From assembly GCA_964512225.1 (NCBI GenBank), contig CAZEKB010000033.1, positions 424-64,423 on the forward strand: 64,000 nt of DNA. The letters are read 5' to 3'. This document shows positions 12,211-54,656 of the stretch, one piece after another. Origin of the DNA: an uncultured Rickettsiales bacterium. Lineage in GTDB: Bacteria; Myxococcota_A; UBA796; UBA9615. The position numbers were made by a program, and so were the translations under genes. The notes beneath the pieces are model-generated. The model searched no databases. It had not been told where the DNA came from and saw only the letters and a program-made list of their open reading frames with translations. Position 1 is the first letter of the stretch. Each line of letters starts with the position of its first letter.

Positions 12211-14868
12211 TCAGCGGTCTCCGCAGACGTAGCTCGTCCAGCCCGGCGTCGACTGGGTGCAGGTGACGTCGTCCCAGTCGCCGCCGTTGGCGTCCAGCAC
12301 CGCGCACTGGTTGCCGCCGCCGCCGCCGTCGGGCTGCCCGGGACCCCAGTTGGTGTAGGACACGCCGGAGCCGTCGGACCACGCGAACGTGCCCGGGGTC
12401 GATTGGTCGGTGAAGCCGATCCACGGGTCCTGGTTCAAGCCCCCGGCGGCCGTGACCAGGCTGATGACGAACGCCTCCTCTCCGGCCGTGAGGACCGACG
12501 CCAGGCCCTGGTACCCGGCGGTCTGGCAGGCCGTCTCGCCCTCGGACCACCCCCCGTTGTCCTCGCAGAACACGAAGTACGCGCCCGTGAGGTCGCCCGC
12601 TTCGCAGTCGAGGCCGTCGCAGTCGGTGTCCGCTCCCCCCAGGGTGTCCCCGGACAGCGGCGCGACCCCGGGATCGGCGTCGTCGCAGTCGCCGTAGTCC
12701 GCGACGTACCCCGCGGGCTGCGCGCACGCCACGACCGAGTTGTAGAAGTCGCCGAAGCCGTCGCCGTCGCCGTCGAAGTACCAGGTCGAGGCGAGGCACA
12801 CCGTCGCGGAGGCCGTGGCCGAGGGCCCGAAGTCCATCCCGTCGGTGGGCGTCGCGGTGCACTCCCACAGGTCGGCGTCCGCGGTCGCGGAGGCGGGCAC
12901 GGCGTCGGACACGTAGGCCGTGACCGTGCCGTTGAGCGTCCACTCGAAGTCGTACGTCACGGTCTGCAGGTCGAGATCCGTGGACGGCGTCGTGATCGTG
13001 CAGAGCAGGTCGTCGCCGACGTCCGGCGTGGCGGGCGCGATCGCGACCCCGGGGGCCGTGGGCGGCGTGTTGGCGACGGCCAGGGGAGCGGACGCGACGG
13101 GAACGCCCACGAGCGTGCCGTCCGACGGGGTGACGATGCACACGACGTCGTCGCCGAGGTCGAACCCCGGCGGCTGAATGCCCGAGTGCACCGGACCCGT
13201 CTGGATCGACGGCGCGCCGCTGATCTCCCAGGTGTACTCGAGGGTGATCGCGTCCCCGTCGGCGTCCGTCGTGGTGCCGGGCGCGCACGTCGCGTTCGAG
13301 TCGGTGTACAGCAGCGCCGGGCCGACGCTCGGGGTGGTCGTCACGGGGGCCGAGTTCAGGACGGTCACGGTCGCGGTGGCGGGCAGCGAGCTGACGAAGC
13401 CGTCGGACGCGGTGACGGTAACGGTCCACGTCTCGTCCCGGGCGGTGCTGGTGGCGGGCACGGTCATGGAGCCGGTGAGGCCGGCTTGCGCCGCCCCGTC
13501 GACGTCCCAGGTCCAGATGTAGGAGATCGCCCCGCCCTCCGGACCGGTGGACTCCACGAGCAGGCTCGCCACGAGGTCGTCGACGGTGGTCGGCGCGGCG
13601 GGCTCCAAGCCGACGGTCGGGGGTGACGGCGCGCCGTCGACGGTGATGGTGATCGCCGCCTCGCCGAGGTACCCGTCGTCGTCTACGGCGCTCAGCGTGA
13701 TCCGATGCTCGCCCAGGGACAGCGCGGGCGCGCTCAGGCTCACGGCCCCCTGGGCGTCCGCCCGGGACGACCCGAGCCAGCCGTCGAGGTCGCTCTCCCA
13801 GTTCACCGCGAGGTCGCCCGGCGGGTCCTCGTAGTCCGACACCGTCCCTTCGAACAGGACGCCCGCGAGGTCCGCCACGAAGGCCCCGTCCGCCGGGCTC
13901 GTGATGGCCACGTCCGGCACTCCGATCACGGCGATGTCCGCCGAATCCACGCACTCGACGCCCACTTCATCGATCACGGTCATGAGGACGGTGTCCGACC
14001 CCGCCGGAAGATCGGTCGTGAGCAGGCTCACCGCGCCCCCCCCGCTGGGGGTGCTCGTGCCCAGGTCGACCCCCGACCCGGTCGACCAGTGCACGGTCAG
14101 GCGGTCCGAGGACACGTCCTCGTCCGTGGCCGTCCCCCGGAGCTCGACCTCGGTGAACTGGAGGATCTCGGCGCCGTCCTCCGGGGCCGTCAGCTCGCAC
14201 TCCGGCGGGTGGTTGGGGCCGCCCACGGCGAGCGTGATCGTCTGCTCCACGCGGTTGCCCGCCGTGTCCGCTGCCGAGACCACGAGGACGTAGCTGCCCA
14301 TGGCCAGCGTCTCGGCGAAGGCCTGCGCTCCCCCGTCGTCGGGCGGGCCGCTGTGCAGGAGGGTGTCGTCCAGTCGCCACTCCAGCAGGAGGTCTTCCGC
14401 CGCGTCCTCGGGATCCGAGGCGACCGCGGAGAACAGCACCGGGAAGTCGTCGTGGAAGACGCCGTCGGGGCCGGGCGACAGGACCTCGAGCTCCGGCGGC
14501 AGGTCCGCGACGACGGTCACCGAGACCGTGTCCGTGCCGGAGACGCGCAGGGGGTCGACGGCCCGCAGCGTGATGTCGTGGACGCCGGCGGGCAGCGCGA
14601 CCGTGACCTGGGAGCCGCGATCGACCGGCGCGCCGGTCGCCAGCGTCCCGTCCAGCGACGACGACCAGGTGAGGTCGAGCGCTCCGGTGTTCCCGCCGGG
14701 ATCCCGGACGACCGCCCGGAAGACGATCGCGATCCCTTCGGCGTGGACCGAGCCCGACTCGGGCTCGACGATCGAGACGTTCGGGGGAGCGTTGATGATG
14801 CCGACGGCCCCGTCGGAGCAGGCGAGCGCGGGGAGGAGGAGGAGGAAGAGGAGGGGTTGGCGGCGCAT
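12211..14868 (-). CDS. Surface lipoprotein with Ig/PKD-like repeats and a C-terminal C-type lectin domain
   Basis: ALAC lipobox; repeated NxPP...I..P, D.ED....L...W.S..DG.L modules; WY.D.DGDGFG; WIGF.D....G.F.WSDG...Y.NW...QP, W.D..C. Confidence 0.85.
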   Translation of the reverse strand: MRRQPLLFLLLLPALACSDGAVGIINAPPNVSIVEPESGSVHAEGIAIVFRAVVRDPGGNTGALDLTWSSSLDGTLATGAPVDRGSQVTVALPAGVHDITLRAVDPLRVSGTDTVSVTVVADLPPELEVLSPGPDGVFHDDFPVLFSAVASDPEDAAEDLLLEWRLDDTLLHSGPPDDGGAQAFAETLAMGSYVLVVSAADTAGNRVEQTITLAVGGPNHPPECELTAPEDGAEILQFTEVELRGTATDEDVSSDRLTVHWSTGSGVDLGTSTPSGGGAVSLLTTDLPAGSDTVLMTVIDEVGVECVDSADIAVIGVPDVAITSPADGAFVADLAGVLFEGTVSDYEDPPGDLAVNWESDLDGWLGSSRADAQGAVSLSAPALSLGEHRITLSAVDDDGYLGEAAITITVDGAPSPPTVGLEPAAPTTVDDLVASLLVESTGPEGGAISYIWTWDVDGAAQAGLTGSMTVPATSTARDETWTVTVTASDGFVSSLPATATVTVLNSAPVTTTPSVGPALLYTDSNATCAPGTTTDADGDAITLEYTWEISGAPSIQTGPVHSGIQPPGFDLGDDVVCIVTPSDGTLVGVPVASAPLAVANTPPTAPGVAIAPATPDVGDDLLCTITTPSTDLDLQTVTYDFEWTLNGTVTAYVSDAVPASATADADLWECTATPTDGMDFGPSATASATVCLASTWYFDGDGDGFGDFYNSVVACAQPAGYVADYGDCDDADPGVAPLSGDTLGGADTDCDGLDCEAGDLTGAYFVFCEDNGGWSEGETACQTAGYQGLASVLTAGEEAFVISLVTAAGGLNQDPWIGFTDQSTPGTFAWSDGSGVSYTNWGPGQPDGGGGGNQCAVLDANGGDWDDVTCTQSTPGWTSYVCGDR

Positions 14869-39020: not shown

Positions 39021-40655
39021 GTGCACGTCACCCTCATCAACCCGCCGCAGGTCTTCAGCAGGTTCCAGGTCGCGGCCGGGATCACGCCGCCCCTGGGCGT
39101 GGCGTACCTCGCCGCGTACCTGCGTGAGCACGGGGTCGAGCCGACTGTCGTCGACGCGCTGGGCGAGGCCCCCTCGCGGGTGACCCCGTTCCGGGGCCCG
39201 GCTCTCCTGCGCGGCCTGGATCTCCAGCAGACGGTCGACCGGGTCGACCCGCGGACTCGGCTGATCGGCATCAGCAACCTGTTCTCCTTCGCCTACCCGG
39301 CGGTCGAGGAGCTGGTCGCCGGGCTCAAAGCGCGCCTCTCGGGCGTGCCGATCGTGCTCGGCGGCCCGCACCCCGGGGCGCTGTGGGAGCGCTGCCTGGA
39401 CGACCCGAACGTCGACTACGTGGTCTCCGGGGAGGGCGAGCAGCCGCTGCTGGAGCTGTGCGAGCACCTCGACGGCCGCCGCGGCCTCGACGACCTGGAG
39501 GCGGTGGCGTTCCGCCGCGGCGAGGAGCGGGTGCACGTCCCCCAGAAGCGCACCCTGATCCGCAAGGTCGAGGACATCCCGTGGCCCGCCCGCGACCTGC
39601 TGCCGATGGAGAACTACGTCGCCACGCAGGAGGCGCACGGGCCGGTCACGAGCCGGTGGACGAGCATCCTGAGCTCGCGGGGCTGCCCCTACGGCTGCAC
39701 GTTCTGCGAGAGCCGCAATACCCGCTGGCGTGCGCGGCCGGCGGCGGACGTGGTCGACGAGATCGAGCACTGCGTGGACCGATGGAAGATCCGCGACTTC
39801 CACTTCGAAGACGACAACATGACGATCAGCCGCCGGCGGATCCTGGAGATGGCGGCCGAGCTCGACCGTCGGGGGCTGGGGATCGACTGGCAGACGCCCA
39901 ACGGCATCCGCGCCAGCGTCACGGACGAGGCGACGCTCGAGGCGATGCGGTCGTCGGGGTGCCGGCACATCACGCTCGCTCCCGAGAGCGGGTCGCCTCG
40001 CGTGCTCCGGGACATCGTCCAGAAGGGCAAGGACTTCGAGCTCGACCAGCTGGTGGAGGTGGCCGAGCTCGCCCACGGGATGGGGATGAAGGTGGCCTCC
40101 TACTTCATCCTCGGGCTGCCCGGGGAGCGCGAGGAGGACGTCGAGCTCACGATCGCGTACAGCCGTCGACTCGCGCGGGCGGGGGTGGACGAGGTCGGCT
40201 TCGGGCTGTTCATTCCCCTGCCGGGGACGCCCCTGTGGGACGAGCTCGGCAGCCGCGTCGACGACCTCGATCTGCTCTCGCTGTTGACGGTCGACGACCT
40301 CGACTCGTCGGTGTCGTTCAACGACGACCTCGACGACGACGACCTGCGCAGGCTGCGCCGCAAGGCGTACATGCTCTTCTTCCTGACGCGCCTCCGGCAC
40401 CACCCCCGGGGGTTCCTGCGCATGGCGGCGAACGTGCTGAAGTCGCGCCAGGAGACCAAGACGGACCGCGTGCTGATCAGCCTGCTGGACCGGATCCGAG
40501 GGGACGCGGGAGAGGGCCGCACGCTGCTCGCGTACCCGTACGACGCGGCCCGGACCGTCAAGGTGTTGCTCCAGGCCGAGAGCGGGTACGCGTTCGAGAA
40601 TGGCCCCTTGAAGACGCTTCGCCTCATGTTCCGTCGCCGCCGCGCGCCGCCGTGA
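39021..40655 (+). CDS. B12-binding domain radical SAM protein
   Basis: PPLG.AYLAA, GG.HP, GEGE, SRGCPYGCTFC (CxxxCxxC), F.DDN, ESGS.R.L. Confidence 0.92.
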   Translation: MHVTLINPPQVFSRFQVAAGITPPLGVAYLAAYLREHGVEPTVVDALGEAPSRVTPFRGPALLRGLDLQQTVDRVDPRTRLIGISNLFSFAYPAVEELVAGLKARLSGVPIVLGGPHPGALWERCLDDPNVDYVVSGEGEQPLLELCEHLDGRRGLDDLEAVAFRRGEERVHVPQKRTLIRKVEDIPWPARDLLPMENYVATQEAHGPVTSRWTSILSSRGCPYGCTFCESRNTRWRARPAADVVDEIEHCVDRWKIRDFHFEDDNMTISRRRILEMAAELDRRGLGIDWQTPNGIRASVTDEATLEAMRSSGCRHITLAPESGSPRVLRDIVQKGKDFELDQLVEVAELAHGMGMKVASYFILGLPGEREEDVELTIAYSRRLARAGVDEVGFGLFIPLPGTPLWDELGSRVDDLDLLSLLTVDDLDSSVSFNDDLDDDDLRRLRRKAYMLFFLTRLRHHPRGFLRMAANVLKSRQETKTDRVLISLLDRIRGDAGEGRTLLAYPYDAARTVKVLLQAESGYAFENGPLKTLRLMFRRRRAPP

Positions 40656-44173: not shown

Positions 44174-45661
44174 CTACTCGACGAGCGGGGGGCGACGGTC
44201 CTTCCAGGGGCGCGCCTCTTCGAGCTGGGCGGCGAGCCGGAACAGGGTGGCCTCGTCGCCGAAGCGGCCCACGAACTGCACGCCCACGGGGAGGCCGTCG
44301 TCGGTCCAGTGCAGGGGCAGCGAGACCCCCGGCTGGCCCGTCTGGTTGAAGAGCTGGGTGTTCGGCGTGGCGGAGAGGGCGTCGGTGCCCATGGTGTCGA
44401 GGGCGAGGTCCAGGAGTCGGGGGAGGGGGAACCGCCCCAGCGCCTTGAGCTGCAGGTCCTTGCTGCCCGACGGGTAGAGCTCGCCGACCTTCGCGGGGGG
44501 GCGGGCGAGGGTGCTCGTCACGAAGACGTCGTGGTCGGCGAAGAAGGCGGCCACGTCGCGGGAGACGCGCTGCATCGTGACCTGCGCGGCGAGCAGCTCG
44601 GGGGCCGTCGTCTTGCGGCCGGCGCAGGCGAGCAGCCACGTCGCGGGCTCGTAGTCGGACGCCCGGGGGCGCTTGCGGCCGGCGTGCTTCGCCGCCTGCT
44701 CCACGAACCAGGCGACGCCGGTGGCGACGGTCAGGAAGTAGGCGCGGACCATCTCCGGCACAGGCACGCTGGGCGCGGCCTGCACCACGTCGTGTCCCAG
44801 CTCCTCGAGCAGCGCCGCGGTCTCCTCGACGGCCGCGCGGCACGCCGGATCGGTGGTGCCGGCGTAGAGCGTGTCGGTCGTGAATGCGATCCGGAGCCGG
44901 CCCGGCGGCGCCCCGACCTCGTCTCGCCAGGGCCGCTCCTTCGCGGGCTGCGCGTAGGGCTCTCCGGGGGTGGCGACGGCCTCCAGATCGAGGAGCAGCG
45001 CGCTGTCCCGCACGGTCCGGGAGACGACGTGCTCCTGGACGAACCCGCCCCACGACTCGCCCGCGAAGGGCGCCTGGGTGACGCGCCCCCGGGTGGGCTT
45101 CAGGCCGACGAGCCCGCAGGCGGAGGCGGGGATGCGGATCGAGCCCCCGCCGTCGCCCGCGTGGGCGATCGGCACCATGCGGGCCGCCACCGCCGCCGCC
45201 GCGCCGCCGGAGCTGCCGCCCGGCGTGTGATCGACGTTCCAGGGGTTGCGGCACGGCCCCCGCAGGGCGGGCTCGGTGATCCCCATGATCCCGAACTCGG
45301 GGGTGTTGGTCTTGCCGAGGATCTGCAGGCCCGCGGCCTCGTAGCGCGCCGCGGTCACCGACGTCGCGTCCGGGATCCAGTCGGCGGTGAGGCGGCAGCT
45401 GTTGCTGGTCGGCGTGCCCGCGATCGCGAGCTTGAGGTCCTTCACCAGGAACGGGACGCCCCGGAGCGGGCCGTCGGGGAGGTCGTCGGCGCGCGCCCGG
45501 GCGCGGTCCTCGAGGTCGTGCACCACGGCGTTGAGGGCCGGGTTGCGGGCCGCGATGCGGTCGACCGCGGCCTGGAGCGCCTCGGTGGGGGAGACCTCGC
45601 CGTCGCGGATGAGCGCGGCGAGGCCGATGGCGTCGAGGTCGTCGTACTCGGGGAGGATCAT
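44174..45661 (-). CDS. Amidase signature family enzyme
   Basis: [48 protein letters not shown]. Confidence 0.93.
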
Positions 45662-46023
45662 GACGCGCGGCCGCTCACGGCGGGCGCCGCGGGGCCCATG
45701 ATCAGCCACACGGCGGCGATCAGCAGCGCGAAGCCGACGAGTTGGCGCGCGCCGAGCGGCTCCCCGAGGACGTAGCGCGAGACCAGCGCGACGCACACCA
45801 CCCCCCCGGCGAGGTGGATCGTCGCCATCTGCGCGCCGGTGAAGAGTCCGTGCCCCATGCGCGTGGCGCTCACGTTCAGCAGGTACTCGGGCAGGACGAG
45901 CAGCCAGCTCGCGGCGAGCGCCACCCAGAACGACCAGTCGTCCTTGAAGCGCAGGTGGCCGAGCCAGGCCATCGCCATCATCGAGCTGGAGAAGAGCAAC
46001 ATCAGGGGGACGAGCACGTGCAT
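45658..46023 (-). CDS. Small DMT-superfamily membrane protein (DUF486-like)
   Basis: S...M..AW.GHL......W......SW....PEY; four TM helices; ATGA overlap with amidase. Confidence 0.8.
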   Translation of the reverse strand: MHVLVPLMLLFSSSMMAMAWLGHLRFKDDWSFWVALAASWLLVLPEYLLNVSATRMGHGLFTGAQMATIHLAGGVVCVALVSRYVLGEPLGARQLVGFALLIAAVWLIMGPAAPAVSGRAS

Positions 46024-46073: not shown

Positions 46074-46156
46074 TGAACATGTTCAGAAAGTGGTTGATCC
46101 GCGGGAGGCCCACCCCTAGATTGAACACGTTCAACACCATGGAGTGAACACGTTCA
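46074..46156. promoter_or_regulatory. Three TGAACA(T/C)GTTCA palindromes (putative TetR operators)
   Basis: Copies at 46074-46085, 46122-46133 and 46145-46156; the last abuts the ATG at 46157. Confidence 0.8.
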
Positions 46157-47722
46157 ATGTCGAAGCCGTCGAAGCAGTCCGCCCGTCTCCGCATCCTCGA
46201 AGCCGCGTTCCAGGAGTTCGCCGATCGCGGGTTCGAGGCCACCACGATGCGCGGCGTCGCCAAGCGCGCCGGGTGCTCGCTGGGCCTCGCGTACGCCTAC
46301 TTCCCCTCGAAGCACGGGCTGGGGCTGGCGCTGTACCGACGCGTCGCGGACGAGGTGGAGCGCGAGATCCCCAACCTGCCCGACGGCACGGTCGCGGAGC
46401 GGTTCGGCGCGCTCATGGAGGCGAAGTTCGGGTTCCTCGACGCTCACCGCCCGACGCTGACCGCCCTGATCGCCGCGGGGATCGACCCCACGGGTCCCCT
46501 CGGGGCGCTCTCCGACGCCACGGCCGCGATCCGCTCCCGGAACTCCGCGGCGTTCGCGGCGGCGGTGGCGGGCGCGACGGACGCGCCGAAGGAGTCGAAG
46601 GACCGAGCGGCGCTCGGGCGGCTCGCCTACGGCATCCACCTCCTGCTCATCCTCGTGTGGACCCAGGACGTGGAGGGCAGGCTGGCCCGCGAGGTCCTCG
46701 GGGTGGCGTGCCGCGTCCTCAAGGGCGCCGTCCCGTTGATCCTGCTGCCCCCGATCAAGGGCCCGCTCGACCGCCTCGACGCGGCGTTCGGCGACCGCCT
46801 CACGGCGGCCGTGAGCGCCGACGTGGAGGAGCGCGCCCGCATCGTCGTCACCCGGCTCATGCGGCACCGTCGGGTCCTCCCCAGCGTCGGCCCGGTGGAC
46901 GACGCGGCGATGGCGCCGCACCTCGTCCGCGTCCGCGCGGCGATCGTGGAGGGCCGCCCGCTCGAGCTCGTGCTCCCCGGCTTCCCGGCGAAGTCGCCGA
47001 GCCCGTTCAAGACCCTCGGGCCGCTCCCCGACATGGCGGAGCGGCTCGCGCTCCGGTCGCTTCAGGACCTGTGCGACGAGCTGTCCGAGGCGCACGCCCC
47101 CGGCGTCACGCTCACGCTCTGCTCGGACGGCGGCGTGTTCGCCGACCTCGTGGGCGTGTCCGATGAAGACGTGATCGCCTACGGGGAGCACATCGACGCG
47201 TGGATCGAGGACCTGCCGTCGCTCCGCCGGTTCGATCTCCCCGACGCGTTCGGTCCGATGGCGCCGTCGGACGCCCGGGCGCGTCTGATGGACGGGTGGT
47301 CCGAGGACACGGAGGTGCTGCGCCGCCGCGCCCGGGAGGTGCCCGCCCTGCGCACCCTCCTGGACGGCCTCCAGCGGTTCCTGTTCGAGGATCGTCTCGG
47401 GGTCGACCGGCGGAGCCGCACGCAGATCCGCAAGAGCGCGGGGGCGGACGCGATCGAGCTCCTGCGTCGATCGCGTGCGTGGGGTCGACTCGTCGCGTTC
47501 CAGTTCCCGGACGCCGTGCGCCTCAGCATCCACCCGCAGCCCGCGCTGTCGGACAAGCTCGGCGTGCACCTGGTGCCCACGGCCGATGCGTGGCTGACGC
47601 CGTGGCACGGGGTCGCGCTCCTGGGGGAGGACGGCTTCGAGCTGGTGAAGCGTCGGGACGCCGAGGAGTGCCAGGCCCGCCTCGTCCTGGCCGACGGCCG
47701 CCCGAGCCACTTCGAGCGATGA
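46157..47722 (+). CDS. TetR regulator fused to isonitrile synthase (PvcA/IsnA/Dit1 family)
   Basis: N-terminal TetR HTH (ILEAA...F..RGF..TTMR.VAKRAG.S.G..Y.YFPSK); C-terminal LPGFPAKSP, GPLPD.AE.LAL, CSDG..F.DL, S.AW, RLSIHPQ, K.GV.L, W.TPWH. Confidence 0.88.
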   Translation: MSKPSKQSARLRILEAAFQEFADRGFEATTMRGVAKRAGCSLGLAYAYFPSKHGLGLALYRRVADEVEREIPNLPDGTVAERFGALMEAKFGFLDAHRPTLTALIAAGIDPTGPLGALSDATAAIRSRNSAAFAAAVAGATDAPKESKDRAALGRLAYGIHLLLILVWTQDVEGRLAREVLGVACRVLKGAVPLILLPPIKGPLDRLDAAFGDRLTAAVSADVEERARIVVTRLMRHRRVLPSVGPVDDAAMAPHLVRVRAAIVEGRPLELVLPGFPAKSPSPFKTLGPLPDMAERLALRSLQDLCDELSEAHAPGVTLTLCSDGGVFADLVGVSDEDVIAYGEHIDAWIEDLPSLRRFDLPDAFGPMAPSDARARLMDGWSEDTEVLRRRAREVPALRTLLDGLQRFLFEDRLGVDRRSRTQIRKSAGADAIELLRRSRAWGRLVAFQFPDAVRLSIHPQPALSDKLGVHLVPTADAWLTPWHGVALLGEDGFELVKRRDAEECQARLVLADGRPSHFER

Positions 47723-49407
47723 AGACGAAGCCCCTCCAGCCGTTCGGCGTCGAGGTGACCGTCCCCACGGGCACGACGTGGTCGACCCTGGACCTCCCCG
47801 CGCTCGTGGCGTTGGGGGAGGAGCACCGCGTGGTCGTCGTGCGGGGCGTCGCGCCCCAGGCCCCCGAGCAGCTCGCCCGCGACTGCCGGGACCTCGGCCG
47901 GCTCCAGCCCTGGCGGTTCGGGGCGGTGCACGAGCTGAAGCACGACCCCGAGGCCGACAACTACCTCTACACCGACCACCCCGTGCCCCTGCACTGGGAC
48001 GGCGCGTTCGCCGACGAGGTGCCCCACTGGCTGGTGTTCCGATGCGTCCGCGCGCCGGCCGCGGGGGGCGAGACGACGTTCGTGCACACCCCCCGCGTCC
48101 TCGCCGCGGCGACCGACGAGCAGCGCGCGCGCTGGGGGGCGACGCGGGTTCGGTACACGACGGAGAAGAAGGCCCACTACGGGGGCACGTTCACCGAGGC
48201 GGTCGTGGGCGGACACGCGACCGAGGGCACGCCGGTGCTGCGGTACGCCGAGCCCGTGGACGATCTCAACCCGGTCTCGGCCACGCCCGACGGCCCCGAC
48301 GCGCACCGCCTGCACGCCGAGCTGCGGGACGTCCTGTGCGGCCCCGACGTGCTCCTCGAGCACGCCTGGCGAGACGGGGACCTGGTGATCGCCGACAACC
48401 ACGCGCTGCTGCACGGCCGCCGGGCGTACGACGCGTCGGGTCCCCGGCACCTGCTCCGCGTGAACATCCTCGATCCGCGCCCGGGCTGGCGGGCGAAGCT
48501 GCACGCGTCGTGGCGGCTGCGTCGCCCCGAGTTCCTCGAGGCGGAGATCCCGATCCTCGCGATCCCGGCGCTGCTCGCGGCCCCGGATCTCGCGGCCCTC
48601 GCCACGGCGACGATGCTCGACGTCTTCCTCCTCTTCTTCCTGTGGTTCCACCTCGGCGACCTCGTGAACTGCCTCATGGACCGCGAGGTGGACGTGCACC
48701 GCAAGACGCACCTCAGCGAGGCGGTGCGGACCCTGGGCGTGCGGAACGTGAAGGCCCAGATCGTGGCGACGGCCCTCGCTTCGGCGGCGGTGGCGGCGCA
48801 CCTCGTCCTCGCGCTGGGGCGCATGGATCTGGCCGTGCTCGGCGTCGTCGGCGTGGGGCTGGCGATCCAGTACACGGCCCCCCCGATCCGCATGAAGTCG
48901 CGGGGGCGATGGCAGATCGTCGCGTACATGGGCCTGCTCTTCGTCTTCCCGATGTCGTTCATCGAGATCGCGGTCGCAGGGCACGTATCGGCGACGGGGC
49001 TGCTCGTCTCGGTCGCCTACGCCGCCATGCAGAGCGGGATCCTGCTCGTGAACAACGCCGAGGACCTGGACGAAGACGAGCGGGAGGGCATCTACACGGC
49101 GTCGATCGCCCTGGGGGCCCGGCGGGCGGTGCGCGTGGGGCGCGCGATGGCGGTCGGGGGCGGCTCGGCCCTCGCGATCGTGCTGGCGGCGACGGCGGGG
49201 CCGTGGGGTCTCGGCGCGCTGCCCCTGCTGATGACGACCGTCGCCACCGACCGGTGGCTCGTCCGGCTCCAGCGGCGCGTGGACGGCGCCCCCGAGGCGG
49301 AGGCGCGCGAGGCGATCCGAGCCCAGGGCAAGCACGTCCCCACCCGCATCGAGTCGGGGGCGTGGGCCGCGCTGTTCGCGGCCGGGGTCACCTTCCTCCT
49401 CGGCTGA
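47719..49407 (+). CDS. TauD/TfdA dioxygenase (PvcB/IsnB-like) fused to UbiA-family prenyltransferase
   Basis: LHWDGAF (HxD), GGET.F, H.W..GDLVIADN..LLHGR; then NCLMDREVD and NNAEDLDED Asp-rich motifs with multiple TM helices. Confidence 0.85.
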   Translation: MKTKPLQPFGVEVTVPTGTTWSTLDLPALVALGEEHRVVVVRGVAPQAPEQLARDCRDLGRLQPWRFGAVHELKHDPEADNYLYTDHPVPLHWDGAFADEVPHWLVFRCVRAPAAGGETTFVHTPRVLAAATDEQRARWGATRVRYTTEKKAHYGGTFTEAVVGGHATEGTPVLRYAEPVDDLNPVSATPDGPDAHRLHAELRDVLCGPDVLLEHAWRDGDLVIADNHALLHGRRAYDASGPRHLLRVNILDPRPGWRAKLHASWRLRRPEFLEAEIPILAIPALLAAPDLAALATATMLDVFLLFFLWFHLGDLVNCLMDREVDVHRKTHLSEAVRTLGVRNVKAQIVATALASAAVAAHLVLALGRMDLAVLGVVGVGLAIQYTAPPIRMKSRGRWQIVAYMGLLFVFPMSFIEIAVAGHVSATGLLVSVAYAAMQSGILLVNNAEDLDEDEREGIYTASIALGARRAVRVGRAMAVGGGSALAIVLAATAGPWGLGALPLLMTTVATDRWLVRLQRRVDGAPEAEAREAIRAQGKHVPTRIESGAWAALFAAGVTFLLG

Positions 49408-49434: not shown

Positions 49435-50658
49435 ATGACGTTGGTTCGAATCGCGTGGCGCAACCTCTGGCGGCACCGTCGTCGGACGCTCATCACCGCG
49501 TCCGGGATGGCGATCGCCATGGGGCTCGTCATCTCCATGTCCGCCATGCAGGACGGCATGTTCGACATGATGGCGGACATCATGGTCCGGCAGCAGCTGG
49601 GCCACGCGCAGGTCAACCACCCGGACTGGCCCGGCCGCGAGCAGATGTACGACACGGTCCCCTCGGACCTCGTCTCGAAGTTCAAGGAGCGCCCCGAGAT
49701 CACCGGGGCGTCCGGCCGCATGTTCACGTTCGGGCTCGCGGCGTCGGACGTGACGTCGGTGGGCGCCCGCTACGTCGGCATCGACCCGGTGGCGGATCTC
49801 GCCATCACGGACCGCTCGCAGAGCGTCGTGCGCGGCGAATACCTGTCGCCCGAGGCGAAGGGTGAGGTCGTCATCGGAGAGGCGATGGCCGACGAGCTCG
49901 AGCTCGACCTCGGGGGCGAGCTGATCTTCCTCGGCCAGGCGGCCGACGGATCCATGGCCAACGAGCTGCTGACGGTCGTGGGCACGTACTCCACCGGCAT
50001 CGACCAGATGGACAAGACCGGCGCCTACCTGCACGTCAGCGACCTGCAGCGCATCCTCGCCCTCGAGGATCAGCTCCATCAGATCCTCGTGGTGGGGGAG
50101 GACATGAACCTGTCCGCCGACATCGCGGCCGCGACGTCCGAGGTCGCCGGGGAGGGCGTGCAGGTCCGGTCCTGGGAGGAGGCGGACCCGGCGATGGCCC
50201 AGATGATGGGCATGCGCGACGTCAGCCTGATCTTCATGCTGGTCATCATCTTCAGCGTGGCCGGCCTGGCCGTGCTCAATACCAACCTCATGACCGTCTT
50301 CGAGCGCACCCGCGAGCTCGGCGTGCTGCGAGCCATCGGCCTGACGCGCACCAAGATGATGGCGCTCGTCATCCTCGAGAGCATCCTGCTCACGGCCGTC
50401 GCGAGCGTGCTCGGGATCGCCCTGGGCGGCTTCCTCGACTGGCTCCTCGTGGAGTACGGGTTCCCCTACGAGACGGCCGACGGCAAGGGCTTCAGCTGGC
50501 AGGGCGTGACGTTCCCCACGCGCTTCTACGGGGCCGTGCGGCCGTTCCCGTTCGTCGTCACCACGGTGTTCGTCTTCCTGGTCGCCATCGCGGCGTCGAT
50601 CTGGCCCGCCGCCCGCGCCGCGCTGCTGCGCCCCGTCGAAGCCATGAGGGAGTCCTGA
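49435..50658 (+). CDS. ABC transporter permease (MacB/FtsX/LolE-like)
   Basis: AWRNLWR..RRT; V.ERTRE.GVL.AIG; four-TM topology. Confidence 0.9.
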   Translation: MTLVRIAWRNLWRHRRRTLITASGMAIAMGLVISMSAMQDGMFDMMADIMVRQQLGHAQVNHPDWPGREQMYDTVPSDLVSKFKERPEITGASGRMFTFGLAASDVTSVGARYVGIDPVADLAITDRSQSVVRGEYLSPEAKGEVVIGEAMADELELDLGGELIFLGQAADGSMANELLTVVGTYSTGIDQMDKTGAYLHVSDLQRILALEDQLHQILVVGEDMNLSADIAAATSEVAGEGVQVRSWEEADPAMAQMMGMRDVSLIFMLVIIFSVAGLAVLNTNLMTVFERTRELGVLRAIGLTRTKMMALVILESILLTAVASVLGIALGGFLDWLLVEYGFPYETADGKGFSWQGVTFPTRFYGAVRPFPFVVTTVFVFLVAIAASIWPAARAALLRPVEAMRES

Positions 50659-51887
50659 TGTTCCTGCTGGCGATCCGCAACCTCTGGCGGAACAAGATCC
50701 GCACCGGGATCACGCTCGCGGCCATCAGCGGCGGCCTGACGCTGATCATGATGGGCAACAACCTCAACCACGGCATGTACCAGGACATGATCAAGAAGGG
50801 GATCAGCACGATCGCCGGTCACGTCGTGGTCCAGCCCGAGGGCTGGCAGGACGACCCCGACGCCGTGGATCGGTCGGTCGCCGACGCCGACGCGATCGCC
50901 GAGAAGGTCGCGGGCGCGTGGCCGGGCGCGAAGGTCGTGCAGCGGACCTTCTTCGGGGGGCTGCTCACGTCGCCCACGAGCTCCGCGGGCGTCGGCATCA
51001 CGGCGATCCAGCCCGAGGCCGAGCCGATCGTGTCGGACTGGCACACCAAGGTCTCCGAGGGAGAGTGGCTGAAGGAGGGCGACGCACGCGGGATCCTCAT
51101 CGGCGCGAAGCTCGCCGAGACGCTGGACGTGAAGGTCGGCAAGAAGCTCGTCCTCATGGGCCAGGGCAAGGAGGAGGTCGTCAGCCAGCTGTTCCGCGTC
51201 CGGGGGATCATCAAGACGGGCTCCGCCCAGGCCGACGGCATCCTCGCCATCACGTCCGTGGAGGCCGCCATGACGTTCCTCGAGCAGCCGGGCGCGGTGA
51301 GCCAGATCTCGCTGCACCTGCCCGTGAGCGACGACTCCGACGCCGCCCTCGCCGCGGTGCAGGGGGCGGTGGCGGGGACGGCCGGGATCGAGGTGCTGGG
51401 GTGGAAGGAGGCGGTCGCGGAGATCTACGAGTTCACCCAGACGGACCGCCGCACCAACAACAGCTTCATGTTCATCATCGGGATCATCGTCGCGTTCGGG
51501 ATCGTCAATACGATCCTCATGAGCGTGATGGAGCGCATCCGCGAGTTCGGGGTGATGCTCGCGCTGGGCACGCCGCCCCTGAAGCTGCGGGCGATGATCC
51601 TCGTCGAGGGCCTCGTCATCGGCGTGCTCGGGGCCGCCATCGGGCTGGCCTTCGGCAGCGCGCTCACGTCGTACCTGGTCACCAACGGCATCGACTACAG
51701 CGAGATGATGGGCGAGTCCTTCGACATGGCCGGCGTCTCGATCAGCACCGTCATCAAGGCGCAGTGGGACTGGGTCAGCATGGCCGCTTACTGCGTCGTC
51801 GCGGTGGTCCTCAGCATCCTCTCCACCGTCTACCCGGCATGGAAGGCGGGCGCGCTGCAGCCCGTCGAAGCCATGCGTCACGTCTAG
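50658..51887 (+). CDS. ABC transporter permease (MacB/FtsX/LolE-like)
   Basis: AIRNLWRN..RT; NTILMSV.ERIREFGVM.ALG. Confidence 0.9.
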   Translation: MFLLAIRNLWRNKIRTGITLAAISGGLTLIMMGNNLNHGMYQDMIKKGISTIAGHVVVQPEGWQDDPDAVDRSVADADAIAEKVAGAWPGAKVVQRTFFGGLLTSPTSSAGVGITAIQPEAEPIVSDWHTKVSEGEWLKEGDARGILIGAKLAETLDVKVGKKLVLMGQGKEEVVSQLFRVRGIIKTGSAQADGILAITSVEAAMTFLEQPGAVSQISLHLPVSDDSDAALAAVQGAVAGTAGIEVLGWKEAVAEIYEFTQTDRRTNNSFMFIIGIIVAFGIVNTILMSVMERIREFGVMLALGTPPLKLRAMILVEGLVIGVLGAAIGLAFGSALTSYLVTNGIDYSEMMGESFDMAGVSISTVIKAQWDWVSMAAYCVVAVVLSILSTVYPAWKAGALQPVEAMRHV

Positions 51888-51896
51888 GAGCCGAAG

Positions 51897-52580
51897 ATGG
51901 CCATCGTCGAAGTCCGCGGTCTGACGCGGACCTACCAGCAGGGGACGCTCGACGTCCCCGCCCTGCGCGGCGTCGATCTCGACATCGAGCCCGGCGAGTT
52001 CACCGTCCTCATGGGGCCCAGCGGGTCGGGCAAGACGACGCTGCTGAACCAGATCGGTGCGCTGGACATCCCGGACGCCGGGTCCGTCAAGGTCGAGGGC
52101 CGGGAGCTGTCCGGCCTGTCCAAGGGAGAGCTCGCGAAGCTCCGGCTCGACCGCATCGGGTTCGTCTTCCAGGCCTACAACCTCATCCCCGTGCTCACCG
52201 CGTACGAGAACGCCGAGTTCGTGCTCCTGATGCAGGGCGTGAGCAAGAAGGAGCGGACGGAGCGGGTGATGAAGACCCTGCACACCGTCGGCCTGGAGGG
52301 CATGGAGCACCGGCGCCCGACCGAGCTGTCCGGCGGGCAGCAGCAGCGGGTGGCGGTCGCCCGGGCGATCGCGGGCGGGCCCGCCCTGGTGCTGGCGGAC
52401 GAGCCCACGGCGAACCTCGACAGCGCCACCGGCTACGCGCTCATCGAGACCATGAAGAAGCTGAACGAAGAGGACGGCGTGACCTTCGTCTTCGCCACTC
52501 ACGATCCCAAGGTGATGGAGCACGCGCGTCGGATCGTGCGGCTCGTCGACGGCAGAATCGATGAGGACATCCACAAATGA
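51897..52580 (+). CDS. ABC transporter ATP-binding protein (LolD-like)
   Basis: GPSGSGKTT, GFVFQ.YNL, LSGGQQQRVA.AR, LADEPT.NLD, H-loop ATHD. Confidence 0.95.
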   Translation: MAIVEVRGLTRTYQQGTLDVPALRGVDLDIEPGEFTVLMGPSGSGKTTLLNQIGALDIPDAGSVKVEGRELSGLSKGELAKLRLDRIGFVFQAYNLIPVLTAYENAEFVLLMQGVSKKERTERVMKTLHTVGLEGMEHRRPTELSGGQQQRVAVARAIAGGPALVLADEPTANLDSATGYALIETMKKLNEEDGVTFVFATHDPKVMEHARRIVRLVDGRIDEDIHK

Positions 52581-53326
52581 GAACGCCCGCCCTGATCACC
52601 GCGCTCCTGGTCGCGGCCCCCTCCGCGCTCGCCGAGGAGGGCAAGCCCACGCTCGAGTCCCTCCTCAACGGCGTCGACGACGTCCAGCGCGGGCAGTCCA
52701 GCAAGGCGCGCGTCGCCATGCACGTCAAGACGAAGCGCTGGGAGCGCACGCTCGTGATGGAGAGCTGGTCGCAGGGTGAGGACAAGTCCCTCATCCGCAT
52801 CGTCTCCCCCGCCAAGGAGGCGGGCACCGCGACCCTGATGGTCGACGACAACATCTGGAACTACCTGCCCAAGGTCGATCGCACGATGAAGGTGCCCGCG
52901 TCGATGATGTCGGGCGCGTGGATGGGGTCGCACTTCACCAACAACGACCTCGTGCGCTCGGACCGGCTGGCGGACGTGTTCACCTACGAGCTCGTGGAGG
53001 AGCCCGCGGCGGACGGGGCGGGGCACTGGGTCATCGAGTGCGTGCCCAAGGAGGACGCGGCGATCGTGTGGGGCAAGGTCGTGGTGAAGGTCCGCGGGGA
53101 GGACAGGATCCCCGACGAGATCACGTACTGGGACGAGGACGGCGCCCTCGTGCGCACGATGCAGTTCCTGGACATCCGCGAGGTGAGCGGCCGCAAGGTC
53201 CCCATGAAGATGCGGCTGGTGCCCGCGGATGAGCCCGACGAGTTCACGGAGGTGACGTACCAGGCCCTGGAGTTCGACCCGGACCTGCCCCCGGGCACGT
53301 TCTCGCTGCAGAGCCTGCGGAAGTAG
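52577..53326 (+). CDS. Outer membrane lipoprotein-sorting (LolA-like) protein
   Basis: SLIR...PAKE.GTA.L, W.YLP...R..K......WMGS.F.N.D. Confidence 0.85.
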   Translation: MRTPALITALLVAAPSALAEEGKPTLESLLNGVDDVQRGQSSKARVAMHVKTKRWERTLVMESWSQGEDKSLIRIVSPAKEAGTATLMVDDNIWNYLPKVDRTMKVPASMMSGAWMGSHFTNNDLVRSDRLADVFTYELVEEPAADGAGHWVIECVPKEDAAIVWGKVVVKVRGEDRIPDEITYWDEDGALVRTMQFLDIREVSGRKVPMKMRLVPADEPDEFTEVTYQALEFDPDLPPGTFSLQSLRK

Positions 53327-53330
53327 CCCG

Positions 53331-54656
53331 GTGCGGCTGGTCCCGGGGCTGGTGGCGGCGTGCCTGCTGCTCCCCACGGGCGCCCACGCCGCCCGCGTCG
53401 TCGACACGGATCGGCTCCAGATCGACGTCGGGGGCGACATCAAGGGCTTCTTCGACGCCGTCTTCCCCTACGAGCACCTGATCATGCCCGAGGACCCGAT
53501 CGCGTCGGCGGCGCTCGACTTCCGGTTCAAGTTCTCGGGCGACTACTCGACCTGGCTCAGCTGGGAGCTGCACCACTCGCTGACGGCGCGGTTCCGGCCC
53601 GGAGAGGCCACGACCTTCGGCATCACCCCGGGCACGGGGCAGCCGGTCGCCGACGAGGCGCTGACGATGTCGTACACGGCGGTCGATACGCCGCACTTCG
53701 AGCTGGCGGGGCGCTTCGACCGGCTCAACCTGAGCTTCCACCTGCCCGGCCTCGACATCTCGATCGGGCGGCAGCCGGTGAGCTTCGGGACCGGGCTGTT
53801 CTTCACGCCCATGGACCTGCTCGCGCCGTACACGCCGCAGGTGGTGGACCGGGAGTACAAGCCGGGGGTGGACGCCGCCCGCTTCGACGGCTTCCTGGGC
53901 GCGACCGGGCGGCTGACGGGCGTCGTGGGCGTCATCGAGGAGTTCTCGCTCGAGGGGCTGTTCGTGGCGGGGTACGGCGGGTTCACCGTGGGCGTGACGG
54001 ACCTGAACTTCTTCGCCGCGAAGATCCGCAAGGACCTGGTGGTCGGGGTCGGGACGGCGTCGTCGATCGGGCCCGTCGGGGTGCACGCGGACGTCACGGT
54101 GACCGTCCCGTTCGAGGGCGAGGACACGTGCCCGGGGGCGAACTCCCTGGCCGATGAAGACGAGGCCTGTCCCCCGTTCTTCCGCGGGGTGGTGGGGGCG
54201 GACATCCGGACGGGGTTCGGGATGTCGGTCGCGGGCGAGTTCTACGTGCAGACGGCCGGGGCGACGGACCGGACGCGGTACCTCGAGGTGGCGACGCGGC
54301 CGCGGTTCGCCCGGGGCGAGCTGTGGACGATGGGCACGTTCTACGGCGGGCTGTCGATCACGCAGGAGATCATCCCCATCGTGTTCGTCAACGTATCGCT
54401 GATGACGAACTTCCTGGATCCGAGCTTCTTCGTGGCGCCGGGCCTCACGTGGTCGGTGTCCGAGAACGCGGAGTTCGCCATCGGCGGGTTCTTCACCATC
54501 GGCGCGAGGCCGGACGAGGTCGAACTCGTCGATCTCATCGACCCGGACACGCTCCAGCCGCTCTCCGAGGACGAGCTCTTGGAGGTGATCCGGAGCAACA
54601 GCGAGTTCGGCCTCGCCCCCCACCAGTTCTACGCCCAGCTCAAGTTCTACTTCTAG
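53331..54656 (+). CDS. Hypothetical outer-membrane beta-barrel protein
   Basis: Signal peptide; DRL, GRQ..S.G.G.FF.P.D, RE.KPGVDA.R; terminal YF. Confidence 0.75.
   Translation: MRLVPGLVAACLLLPTGAHAARVVDTDRLQIDVGGDIKGFFDAVFPYEHLIMPEDPIASAALDFRFKFSGDYSTWLSWELHHSLTARFRPGEATTFGITPGTGQPVADEALTMSYTAVDTPHFELAGRFDRLNLSFHLPGLDISIGRQPVSFGTGLFFTPMDLLAPYTPQVVDREYKPGVDAARFDGFLGATGRLTGVVGVIEEFSLEGLFVAGYGGFTVGVTDLNFFAAKIRKDLVVGVGTASSIGPVGVHADVTVTVPFEGEDTCPGANSLADEDEACPPFFRGVVGADIRTGFGMSVAGEFYVQTAGATDRTRYLEVATRPRFARGELWTMGTFYGGLSITQEIIPIVFVNVSLMTNFLDPSFFVAPGLTWSVSENAEFAIGGFFTIGARPDEVELVDLIDPDTLQPLSEDELLEVIRSNSEFGLAPHQFYAQLKFYF

Follow-up and report, generated by a model that had tools for sequence, protein, structure and literature searches.

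Can an enzyme of secondary metabolism carry the repressor of its own genes within the same polypeptide? The question is raised by a gene at positions 46157–47722 of a 64,000-nucleotide stretch of contig CAZEKB010000033.1 (hereafter, the window), which encodes a protein with an N-terminal half resembling TetR-type regulators and a C-terminal half resembling PvcA/IsnA isonitrile synthases. We find that this TetR–IsnA fusion is genuine and widespread, not a one-off, that it stands at the head of a conserved biosynthetic cassette, and that palindromic candidate operators lie directly upstream of its start codon. The explanation that we favor, and that we consider probable on comparative grounds, is that the protein acts as a bifunctional enzyme-repressor.

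The gene consists of a single open reading frame (ORF) of 521 aa on the forward strand, with an ATG start and no internal stop. The window has a GC content of ~70–77%, and GC content at third codon positions (GC3) stays at 0.91–0.99 in one frame from 46240 to ~47560, with a frame switch only at the next gene. High GC3 in a single frame through both halves thus gives no sign of a frameshift between the TetR and IsnA parts. An identical protein is encoded on 16 contigs, and the four records of it that were displayed come from four samples (JGI 3300007511, ENA ERZ23498660, SRR8062322, and SRR8062323). A hidden stop or frameshift is ruled out by the continuous frame plot together with the identical ORF on these contigs.

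Pfam places TetR_N (PF00440) at aa 13–58 (E = 3e-14; 53 bits, cutoff 24) and DIT1_PvcA (PF05141) at aa 259–506 (E = 6e-60; 203 bits, cutoff 26.4), the latter spanning positions 1–269 of a 273-position profile. The matching PDB sequences are PvcA (3E59, E = 9e-63) for the C-terminal half and 3C07 (E = 6.5e-13, over aa 7–176) for the N-terminal half. The best NCBIfam match is the PvcA tyrosine isonitrile synthase equivalog NF045653, at 209.5 bits against a cutoff of 600. Lying so far below this cutoff, the protein is a member of the PF05141 family and is excluded as a PvcA orthologue. We delimit a TetR module at aa 1–215 (46157–46801, forward strand), based on Pfam, 3C07, Foldseek, and the stand-alone relative P0124, and a PvcA/IsnA-type isonitrile synthase domain at aa 236–521 (46862–47719, forward strand), based on Pfam, 3E59, Foldseek, and residue conservation.

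The synthase domain was compared with 15 stand-alone IsnA enzymes from Streptomyces, Burkholderia, and other genera, and positions common to at least 14 of them were counted as near-invariant. The window protein keeps 72 of 77 such positions, and its five deviations are all conservative (A to G, N to S, A to V, T to I, and V to L). The original prediction had allowed that the catalytic residues might prove degenerate; we reject a degenerate synthase domain on this count, and the C-terminal half is predicted from its sequence to be a working isonitrile synthase.

An AlphaFold2 model of the single chain, built from 116 homologues, has a predicted local distance difference test score (pLDDT) of 95.7 and a predicted template-modeling score (pTM) of 0.93. 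It consists of ten helices (aa 6–215), a linker helix (aa 221–235), and an alpha/beta domain, and it suggests that the two domains are packed rigidly against each other. Helices a1–a3 (aa 6–48) form the helix-turn-helix (HTH), with SLGLAYAYF as the recognition helix, and a4–a10 form an all-helical ligand-binding/dimerization domain. Foldseek matches the C-terminal half to PvcA (3E59) and to PIsnA structures with bound L-tyrosine or isonitrile product (9DH4 and 9DHM), with a template-modeling (TM) score of about 0.9 and a root-mean-square deviation of 2.0–2.3 Å. The N-terminal half matches whole TetR regulators, the best being 3C07 at TM 0.81–0.86, and its next structural neighbors are the acyl-CoA/lipid binders FadR, KstR, and FasR (TM 0.7–0.77 for FadR and KstR). 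Both parts of the original prediction are thus upheld: the ORF is uninterrupted, with ATG start and continuous GC3, and Pfam, the model, and Foldseek agree on a full TetR half followed by a PvcA/IsnA half.

The single ORF might still be read as an artefact, with an error in sequencing or assembly having merged adjacent tetR and isnA genes. A homologue search against 5.8 billion proteins, of which the best 120 matches were examined, bears directly on this point. Nearly all of these homologues are 500–550 aa long and cover 93–100% of the query at 39–85% identity, and at least 89 hold both TetR_N and DIT1_PvcA in one protein. Source names among them include Myxococcales, Sandaracinus, Planctomycetes, Pyrinomonadaceae, and Sericytochromatia. 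In a set of contigs with one genome per species, 62 of the best 80 loci encode the full-length fusion. These loci fall in Myxococcota (Nannocystis, Byssovorax, Polyangiaceae, Archangium, and Sandaracinaceae), Acidobacteriota, Planctomycetota, and Bacteroidota (several cultured Hymenobacter strains), and they also include the complete genome of Abditibacteriota IAD-21 (AP024152) and metagenome-assembled genomes (MAGs) of Dormiibacterota and Actinomycetes. Set beside the four records from different samples, the unbroken coding frame, and the confidently modeled interdomain region, these species-representative loci leave an artefact with a vanishingly small chance of being right.

Both halves are ordinary members of their families, and it is their combination that is undescribed. 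The fusion has so far been recognized by automatic annotation only, many homologues carrying the JGI label 'Dit1/AcrR family transcriptional regulator'. A tree-of-life survey of PF05141 marks extra domains of just two kinds on its tree, TauD and NRPS-like, makes no mention of TetR, and assigns the bacterial members chiefly to Proteobacteria, Cyanobacteria, and Actinobacteria (PMC5974471). Our literature search found no paper on a TetR–IsnA fusion or on the cassette of IsnA, IsnB, and UbiA genes described below. The original statement that no such fusion had been described thus stands, whereas the rarity that it implied does not, as the architecture occurs in more than 100 protein clusters from at least six phyla. 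A rough neighbor-joining tree of the synthase domain is not decisive on a single origin of the fusion. As for a split tetR and isnA pair, no relative of the N-terminal domain was detected near two UbiA-linked loci with IsnA only (L060 and L077), and none of the stand-alone TetR relatives examined adjoins an IsnA gene.

Two metagenomic proteins may extend the architecture further. P0096 (695 aa), encoded on a 3-kb metagenomic contig, matches PF02668 and PF05141 and has an N-terminal half that matches aa 7–224 of the window protein, so it may be a TetR–IsnA–IsnB triple fusion. P0132 (736 aa) is similar, but garbled stretches in it suggest frameshift errors.

Does the TetR half control the gene that encodes it? 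The window has three copies of the palindrome TGAACnnGTTCA, none of them more than 83 bp upstream of the fusion start codon. At up to one mismatch, TGAACNNGTTCA has three matches in the 64 kb against 0.44 expected, a number that none of 100 shuffles reached, and all three are confined to the 133-bp intergenic region ahead of the fusion. The distal site, O1 (TGAACATGTTCA, 46074–46085), begins at −83 from the start codon; O2 (46122–46133) begins at −35, and O3 (46145–46156) begins at −12 and abuts the ATG, both with the sequence TGAACACGTTCA. The spacing of O2 and O3 is 23 bp, as it is in relatives and in a locus with a stand-alone TetR (L088).

The closest relatives, L001 (77% identity) and L002 (93%, syntenic over the whole cluster), are MAGs labeled 'uncultured Rickettsiales', and the operators are conserved in them. 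O1 recurs in L002, O2 stands at the same offset in both, and O3 is invariant in all three. L002 has four sites (−83, −58, −35, and −12) and L001 has three. The −58 site of L001 and L002 has been lost in the window (46094–46116), and operator number thus varies among close relatives.

A putative sigma-70-like promoter at 46094–46122 on the forward strand consists of a −35 hexamer TTGATC (46094–46099), a 17-nt spacer, and a −10 hexamer TAGATT (46117–46122). L002 has the hexamers TTGACT and TACGAT at positions aligned with the two elements. The putative promoter overlaps O2, which would thus cover the −10 element and transcription start and would place O3 on the 5' leader.

Related loci allowed us to compare the occurrence of operators with the sequence of the HTH. 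The window protein reads G-C-S-L-G-L-A-Y-A-Y-F-P-S-K across the recognition helix, and we refer to its core as S-x-G-L. Related loci bear a TGAACnnGTTCA-type site within 85 bp upstream of the start, and more distant relatives (43–49% identity) bear the extended motif AAGTGAACnnGTTCACTT within 70 bp of it. At up to two mismatches, a site is present in all 17 loci with the S-x-G-L helix (the window included) and in one of the 43 loci without it, where it lies in an AT-rich region; at up to one mismatch, the counts are 14 and 0. Sixteen S-x-G-L loci together have 21 sites (up to one mismatch) in their 16 × 120 bp of upstream sequence as compared to 13 in the other 271 kb, and the background in other loci is ~4.5 sites per 100 kb.

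The same co-variation is seen between neighboring branches of the rough tree. L041 has both helix and site where L055 has neither, and the window, L001, and L002 have both where L003–L005 have neither. Operators should disappear along with the S-x-G helix only if it is the fused HTH that reads them. Within the window's clade, moreover, identity is as high in the HTH (0.58) as in the enzyme domain (0.57), and it is 0.41 in the ligand domain. The idea in the original prediction that the enzyme may repress its own operon has thereby gained strong comparative support, with three conserved cognate palindromes on its own promoter. Autoregulation appears well supported for the window's clade, and we consider it highly likely there.

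Two sister loci, L008 and L010, have a perfect TGAACCnGTTCA inside the fusion coding sequence (+824 and +818 from the start, respectively), which could be an internal operator or a coincidence.

Several observations weigh against a repressor role or narrow its reach. A sigma-70 scan of the intergenic region gave no match at threshold, and the putative promoter, which was found by eye, scores 8/12, one below that threshold, so that its position is one that we infer. O1–O3 could also serve a stand-alone TetR paralogue encoded at another place in the genome. In most other fusion clades (Acidobacteriota, Planctomycetota, Hymenobacter, and Nannocystis-type), the recognition helix is without S-x-G, and no common upstream palindrome was found in loci of these four groups by a search that did pick up the motif in its positive control. 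Within the acidobacterial proteins, conservation is lowest in the HTH (0.37), higher in the ligand domain (0.45), and highest in the enzyme (0.62). With no palindrome found and no S-x-G helix in these clades, and with such low HTH conservation in Acidobacteriota, the persistence of the fusion across phyla may not be due to DNA binding. In addition, six polar residues that are invariant in the ligand domain (R82, D110, R126, D142, Y158, and H161) also occur in stand-alone relatives beside unrelated genes.

These observations feed an alternative in which the TetR-like half is mainly a ligand-binding or scaffold module of the enzyme and DNA binding is a dispensable ancestral leftover. Such a module might hold a hydrophobic or phosphorylated pathway ligand, dimerize the synthase, or pass product to a membrane-bound IsnB–UbiA protein, and the palindromes of the window might mainly serve a separate paralogous TetR. 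Consistent with this, the ligand-domain motifs persist throughout the phyla, whereas most clades have a degenerate HTH and no operators, the TetR domain tracks the presence of UbiA (see below), the nearest structural neighbors FadR, KstR, and FasR bind acyl-CoA and other lipids, and the pTM of the model suggests a fixed interdomain packing. The window's clade, however, has a canonical HTH (Pfam 3e-14) that matches the enzyme domain in conservation, and the operators vanish along with the S-x-G helix. We judge a role mainly in ligand binding or scaffolding unlikely. Common to the family as a whole is the fusion of a TetR ligand domain with IsnA, together with the link to UbiA, and the contrast between clades that keep operator and canonical HTH and clades without both offers a natural experiment in the passage of a regulator domain to an enzyme accessory domain.

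If the window protein is an enzyme-repressor, what might it sense? We searched aa 1–235 against 1.84 billion representative sequences and found that ~125 of the best 150 matches are stand-alone TetRs of ~200–250 aa, which align with the HTH and the ligand domain at 35–48% identity (44% over aa 4–195 for P0124). These nearest relatives of the N-terminal half share its operator: all four stand-alone TetRs with a readable promoter bear the same palindrome. Two sites lie upstream of the TetR start in L081, one in L082, and two in L083, and in L088 two sites 23 bp apart lie ahead of the first gene of the operon. The motif thus belongs to the HTH subfamily and not to isonitrile genes. The L088 operon (600–2788) encodes a fatty-acid desaturase, the TetR as its middle gene, and a methyltransferase, downstream of two perfect operators, and provides a lipid-related context for the TetR subfamily.

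The neighbors of the stand-alone relatives (a fatty-acid desaturase with a methyltransferase, PqqD with unknown proteins, or DUF2071) also bear on the ligand. The six polar residues are hallmarks of the subfamily and lend no specific support to the original idea that the enzyme may sense its own isonitrile product. Autoregulation could then respond to a subfamily-wide signal, such as a lipid, an acyl-CoA-like molecule, or a stress metabolite, in place of a pathway metabolite, and the fusion would simply be a fixed connection between a regulator and a biosynthetic cassette that are both portable. The hallmarks shared with relatives in unrelated surroundings fit this idea, as does the presence of the cassette in unrelated genomic contexts across phyla, which suits a self-contained mobile unit. 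Against it, the cluster-situated regulators ActR, SimR, and LanK sense products or intermediates of their pathways. On balance, we think it somewhat likely that the fusion responds to a ligand at all, regard a generic signal as a realistic possibility short of an even chance, and hold that a pathway metabolite as the ligand is a rather doubtful proposition.

The genes downstream of the fusion place it in a biosynthetic pathway. The fusion stop overlaps the start of the next gene (ATGA, 47719–47722), which encodes a 562-aa protein (47719–49407, forward strand) comprising an IsnB/PvcB-type Fe(II)/2-oxoglutarate dioxygenase (aa 3–248) and a UbiA membrane prenyltransferase (aa 278–522). Pfam detects TauD (2.8e-37) and UbiA (1.5e-21), the PDB match is PvcB (3EAT, E = 6e-40), and the protein has the dioxygenase motifs HWD and LLHGR and both Asp-rich UbiA motifs (NCLMDREVD and EDLDED). 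The joining of a soluble dioxygenase to an integral-membrane prenyltransferase is itself unusual. The original prediction, right about the regulator–synthase fusion, had overlooked both this second fusion and the cassette of TetR–IsnA, IsnB, and UbiA.

This cassette is conserved: all full-length fusions with sufficient downstream sequence have IsnB and then UbiA after them. The two follow the fusion in 57 of the 62 loci, with four of the other five stopping at a contig edge, and the two are fused in 35 of the 57 and encoded by separate adjacent genes in 22. By comparison, UbiA is present in 2 of 18 loci with a stand-alone IsnA; the other 16 are without it, most of them with IsnB. The genes that flank the cassette differ from phylum to phylum, and the three-enzyme unit thus behaves as self-contained.

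Variations on the cassette occur in several groups. In Acidobacteriota and Abditibacteriota, a gene of ~145 aa with a Coq4 (PF05019) match lies between TetR–IsnA and IsnB; the match reaches 26.8 bits (cutoff 22.9) in L042 (11565–12014) and is below threshold in L040 (11596–12030), and other loci of these phyla have a 440–510 bp gap between IsnA and IsnB. The Coq4-like insertion hints at quinone-like handling of a prenylated aromatic. In Hymenobacter lapidiphilus (L031), a FAD_binding_3/DAO monooxygenase/reductase-like gene (13498–14679) lies directly downstream of IsnB–UbiA and may add a tailoring step in Hymenobacter.

What the cassette makes can be proposed by analogy. IsnA would convert Tyr or Trp and ribulose-5-phosphate to an alpha-isocyano acid, and IsnB would carry out an oxidative decarboxylation to a vinyl isonitrile, so that the pair is predicted to yield a phenol or indole vinyl isonitrile (PMC11350588). 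As the conserved fusion suggests, the UbiA domain would then prenylate the phenol at the membrane. The predicted product is a lipid-like prenylated 4-hydroxystyryl (vinyl) isonitrile.

In the window, five further genes of the tightly packed row suggest an export route for such a molecule. Two MacB-type permeases (49435–50658 and 50658–51887, forward strand; Pfam MacB_PCD and FtsX) are followed on the same strand by an ATP-binding cassette (ABC) transporter ATPase (51897–52580; Pfam ABC_tran, 3e-34), a LolA-like lipid/lipoprotein carrier (52577–53326; Pfam LolA_like, 6.6e-48), and, as the last gene of the row, a 441-aa protein (53331–54656). The latter gave no Pfam or NCBIfam match; it has a signal peptide and a C-terminal ...KFYF, is syntenic in L002, and is probably an outer-membrane barrel. 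Among related loci, the window and L002 alone have this MacB/LolA-like set. A LolA-like carrier and a putative barrel behind a MacB-type ABC transporter resemble a dedicated route for a hydrophobic molecule to the outer membrane. In the window's clade only, the set may carry the lipid outward and is the likely exporter of the predicted product.

Returning to the enzyme-repressor explanation, we propose that TetR-type dimers of the fusion probably bind O1–O3 and cover the likely −10 element and transcription start as well as the 5' leader. Given this placement, we infer repression rather than activation. The seven genes headed by the fusion, presumed to be one operon (TetR–IsnA, IsnB–UbiA, two MacB permeases, ABC ATPase, LolA-like carrier, and putative outer-membrane barrel), would be repressed, possibly along with divergently transcribed DMT_6 and amidase genes. 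As repressor and enzyme would be one protein, the dose of the repressor would equal that of the first enzyme of the pathway, and the strength of repression would follow the amount of this enzyme. Release would presumably be brought about by a small molecule in the TetR ligand domain or by occupancy of the synthase domain, passed on through the rigid interdomain packing that the model suggests.

A broader reading shifts the emphasis from the regulator to the cassette. Here, a self-contained unit found in Myxococcota, Acidobacteriota, Planctomycetota, Bacteroidota, Abditibacteriota, and Dormiibacterota, and in some versions including a Coq4-like gene, would produce an undescribed class of prenylated vinyl-isonitrile phenols that are anchored in the membrane and formally parallel the polyprenyl-hydroxybenzoate intermediates of quinone synthesis. 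The TetR-derived domain would be integral to the enzyme, sensing or carrying a lipid or phosphorylated ligand, and its second role as an autorepressor would be limited to clades in which both S-x-G helix and operator have been retained. We offer this reading tentatively, as less likely than not.

How does the system compare with those already known? The likeness to PvcA/IsnA enzymes (PF05141; 3E59, 9DH4, and 9DHM) extends over the full C-terminal half and to an IsnB/PvcB-type dioxygenase directly downstream. Described members, however, are stand-alone or fused to TauD dioxygenase or nonribosomal peptide synthetase (NRPS)-like domains, whereas the window protein has a 215-aa N-terminal TetR. 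Rhabduscin (IsnA/IsnB), paerucumarin (PvcA–D), and hapalindole (AmbI1-3) pathways share the pair of IsnA and IsnB and, by prediction, the vinyl isonitrile. These pathways tailor it with a glycosyltransferase, PvcC/D, or soluble ABBA prenyltransferases, whereas the window encodes a UbiA-type integral-membrane prenyltransferase fused to IsnB. We found the predicted prenylated vinyl isonitrile in no paper. Isonitriles are metal-binding and antibiotic warheads, and a membrane-anchored version would thus be a new chemotype. The cassette itself, an uncharacterized set of isonitrile synthase, decarboxylating dioxygenase, and UbiA, is conserved and recurs in numerous phyla from soil and water, with cultured Hymenobacter strains among its carriers.

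With regard to regulation, the window protein resembles ActR, SimR, and LanK in its canonical HTH, all-helical ligand domain, palindromes on its own promoter, and nearby exporter genes. Those regulators are separate proteins of ~200 aa, whereas this one is covalently joined to the first biosynthetic enzyme. A catalytic and a DNA-binding domain in one polypeptide, with apparent control of the genes of its own pathway, are also features of enzyme-repressors such as BirA, PutA, and NadR. Those proteins use winged-helix, ribbon-helix-helix, or Xre DNA-binding folds and belong to central metabolism, whereas the window protein has a TetR fold and belongs to secondary metabolism. The TetR module also brings its own ligand pocket, so that the signal need not be the substrate of the enzyme. 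If our explanation is right, the window protein would join the trigger enzymes, catalytic proteins that also regulate genes (Commichau and Stülke, 2008, as cited in PMC6524683), as a natural example of a TetR linked covalently to the enzyme that opens the pathway under its control, and would provide a one-gene biosensor-plus-catalyst.

The remaining features of the locus concern its surroundings. The operator-bearing intergenic region is shared with a divergent gene for a small DMT_6 (PF04342) membrane protein (45658–46023, reverse strand; Pfam on identical contigs), the short start of which is conserved in L002, and beyond it lies an amidase gene (44174–45661; from gene calls on identical contigs). 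A terminator scan at the end of the gene row and an Rfam scan of the whole window gave no match. The Rickettsiales label of L001 and L002 is implausible for GC-rich DNA with MacB and LolA-like genes and is probably a binning or taxonomy error. Next in relatedness come Nannocystis and Byssovorax, which suggests a diderm, Myxococcota-like source bacterium. Further upstream, 694-aa and 201-aa proteins without a family match lie between the amidase gene and a gene at 39021–40655 (forward strand), a few kb from the fusion, that encodes a B12-binding and Radical_SAM enzyme and is also present in L002.

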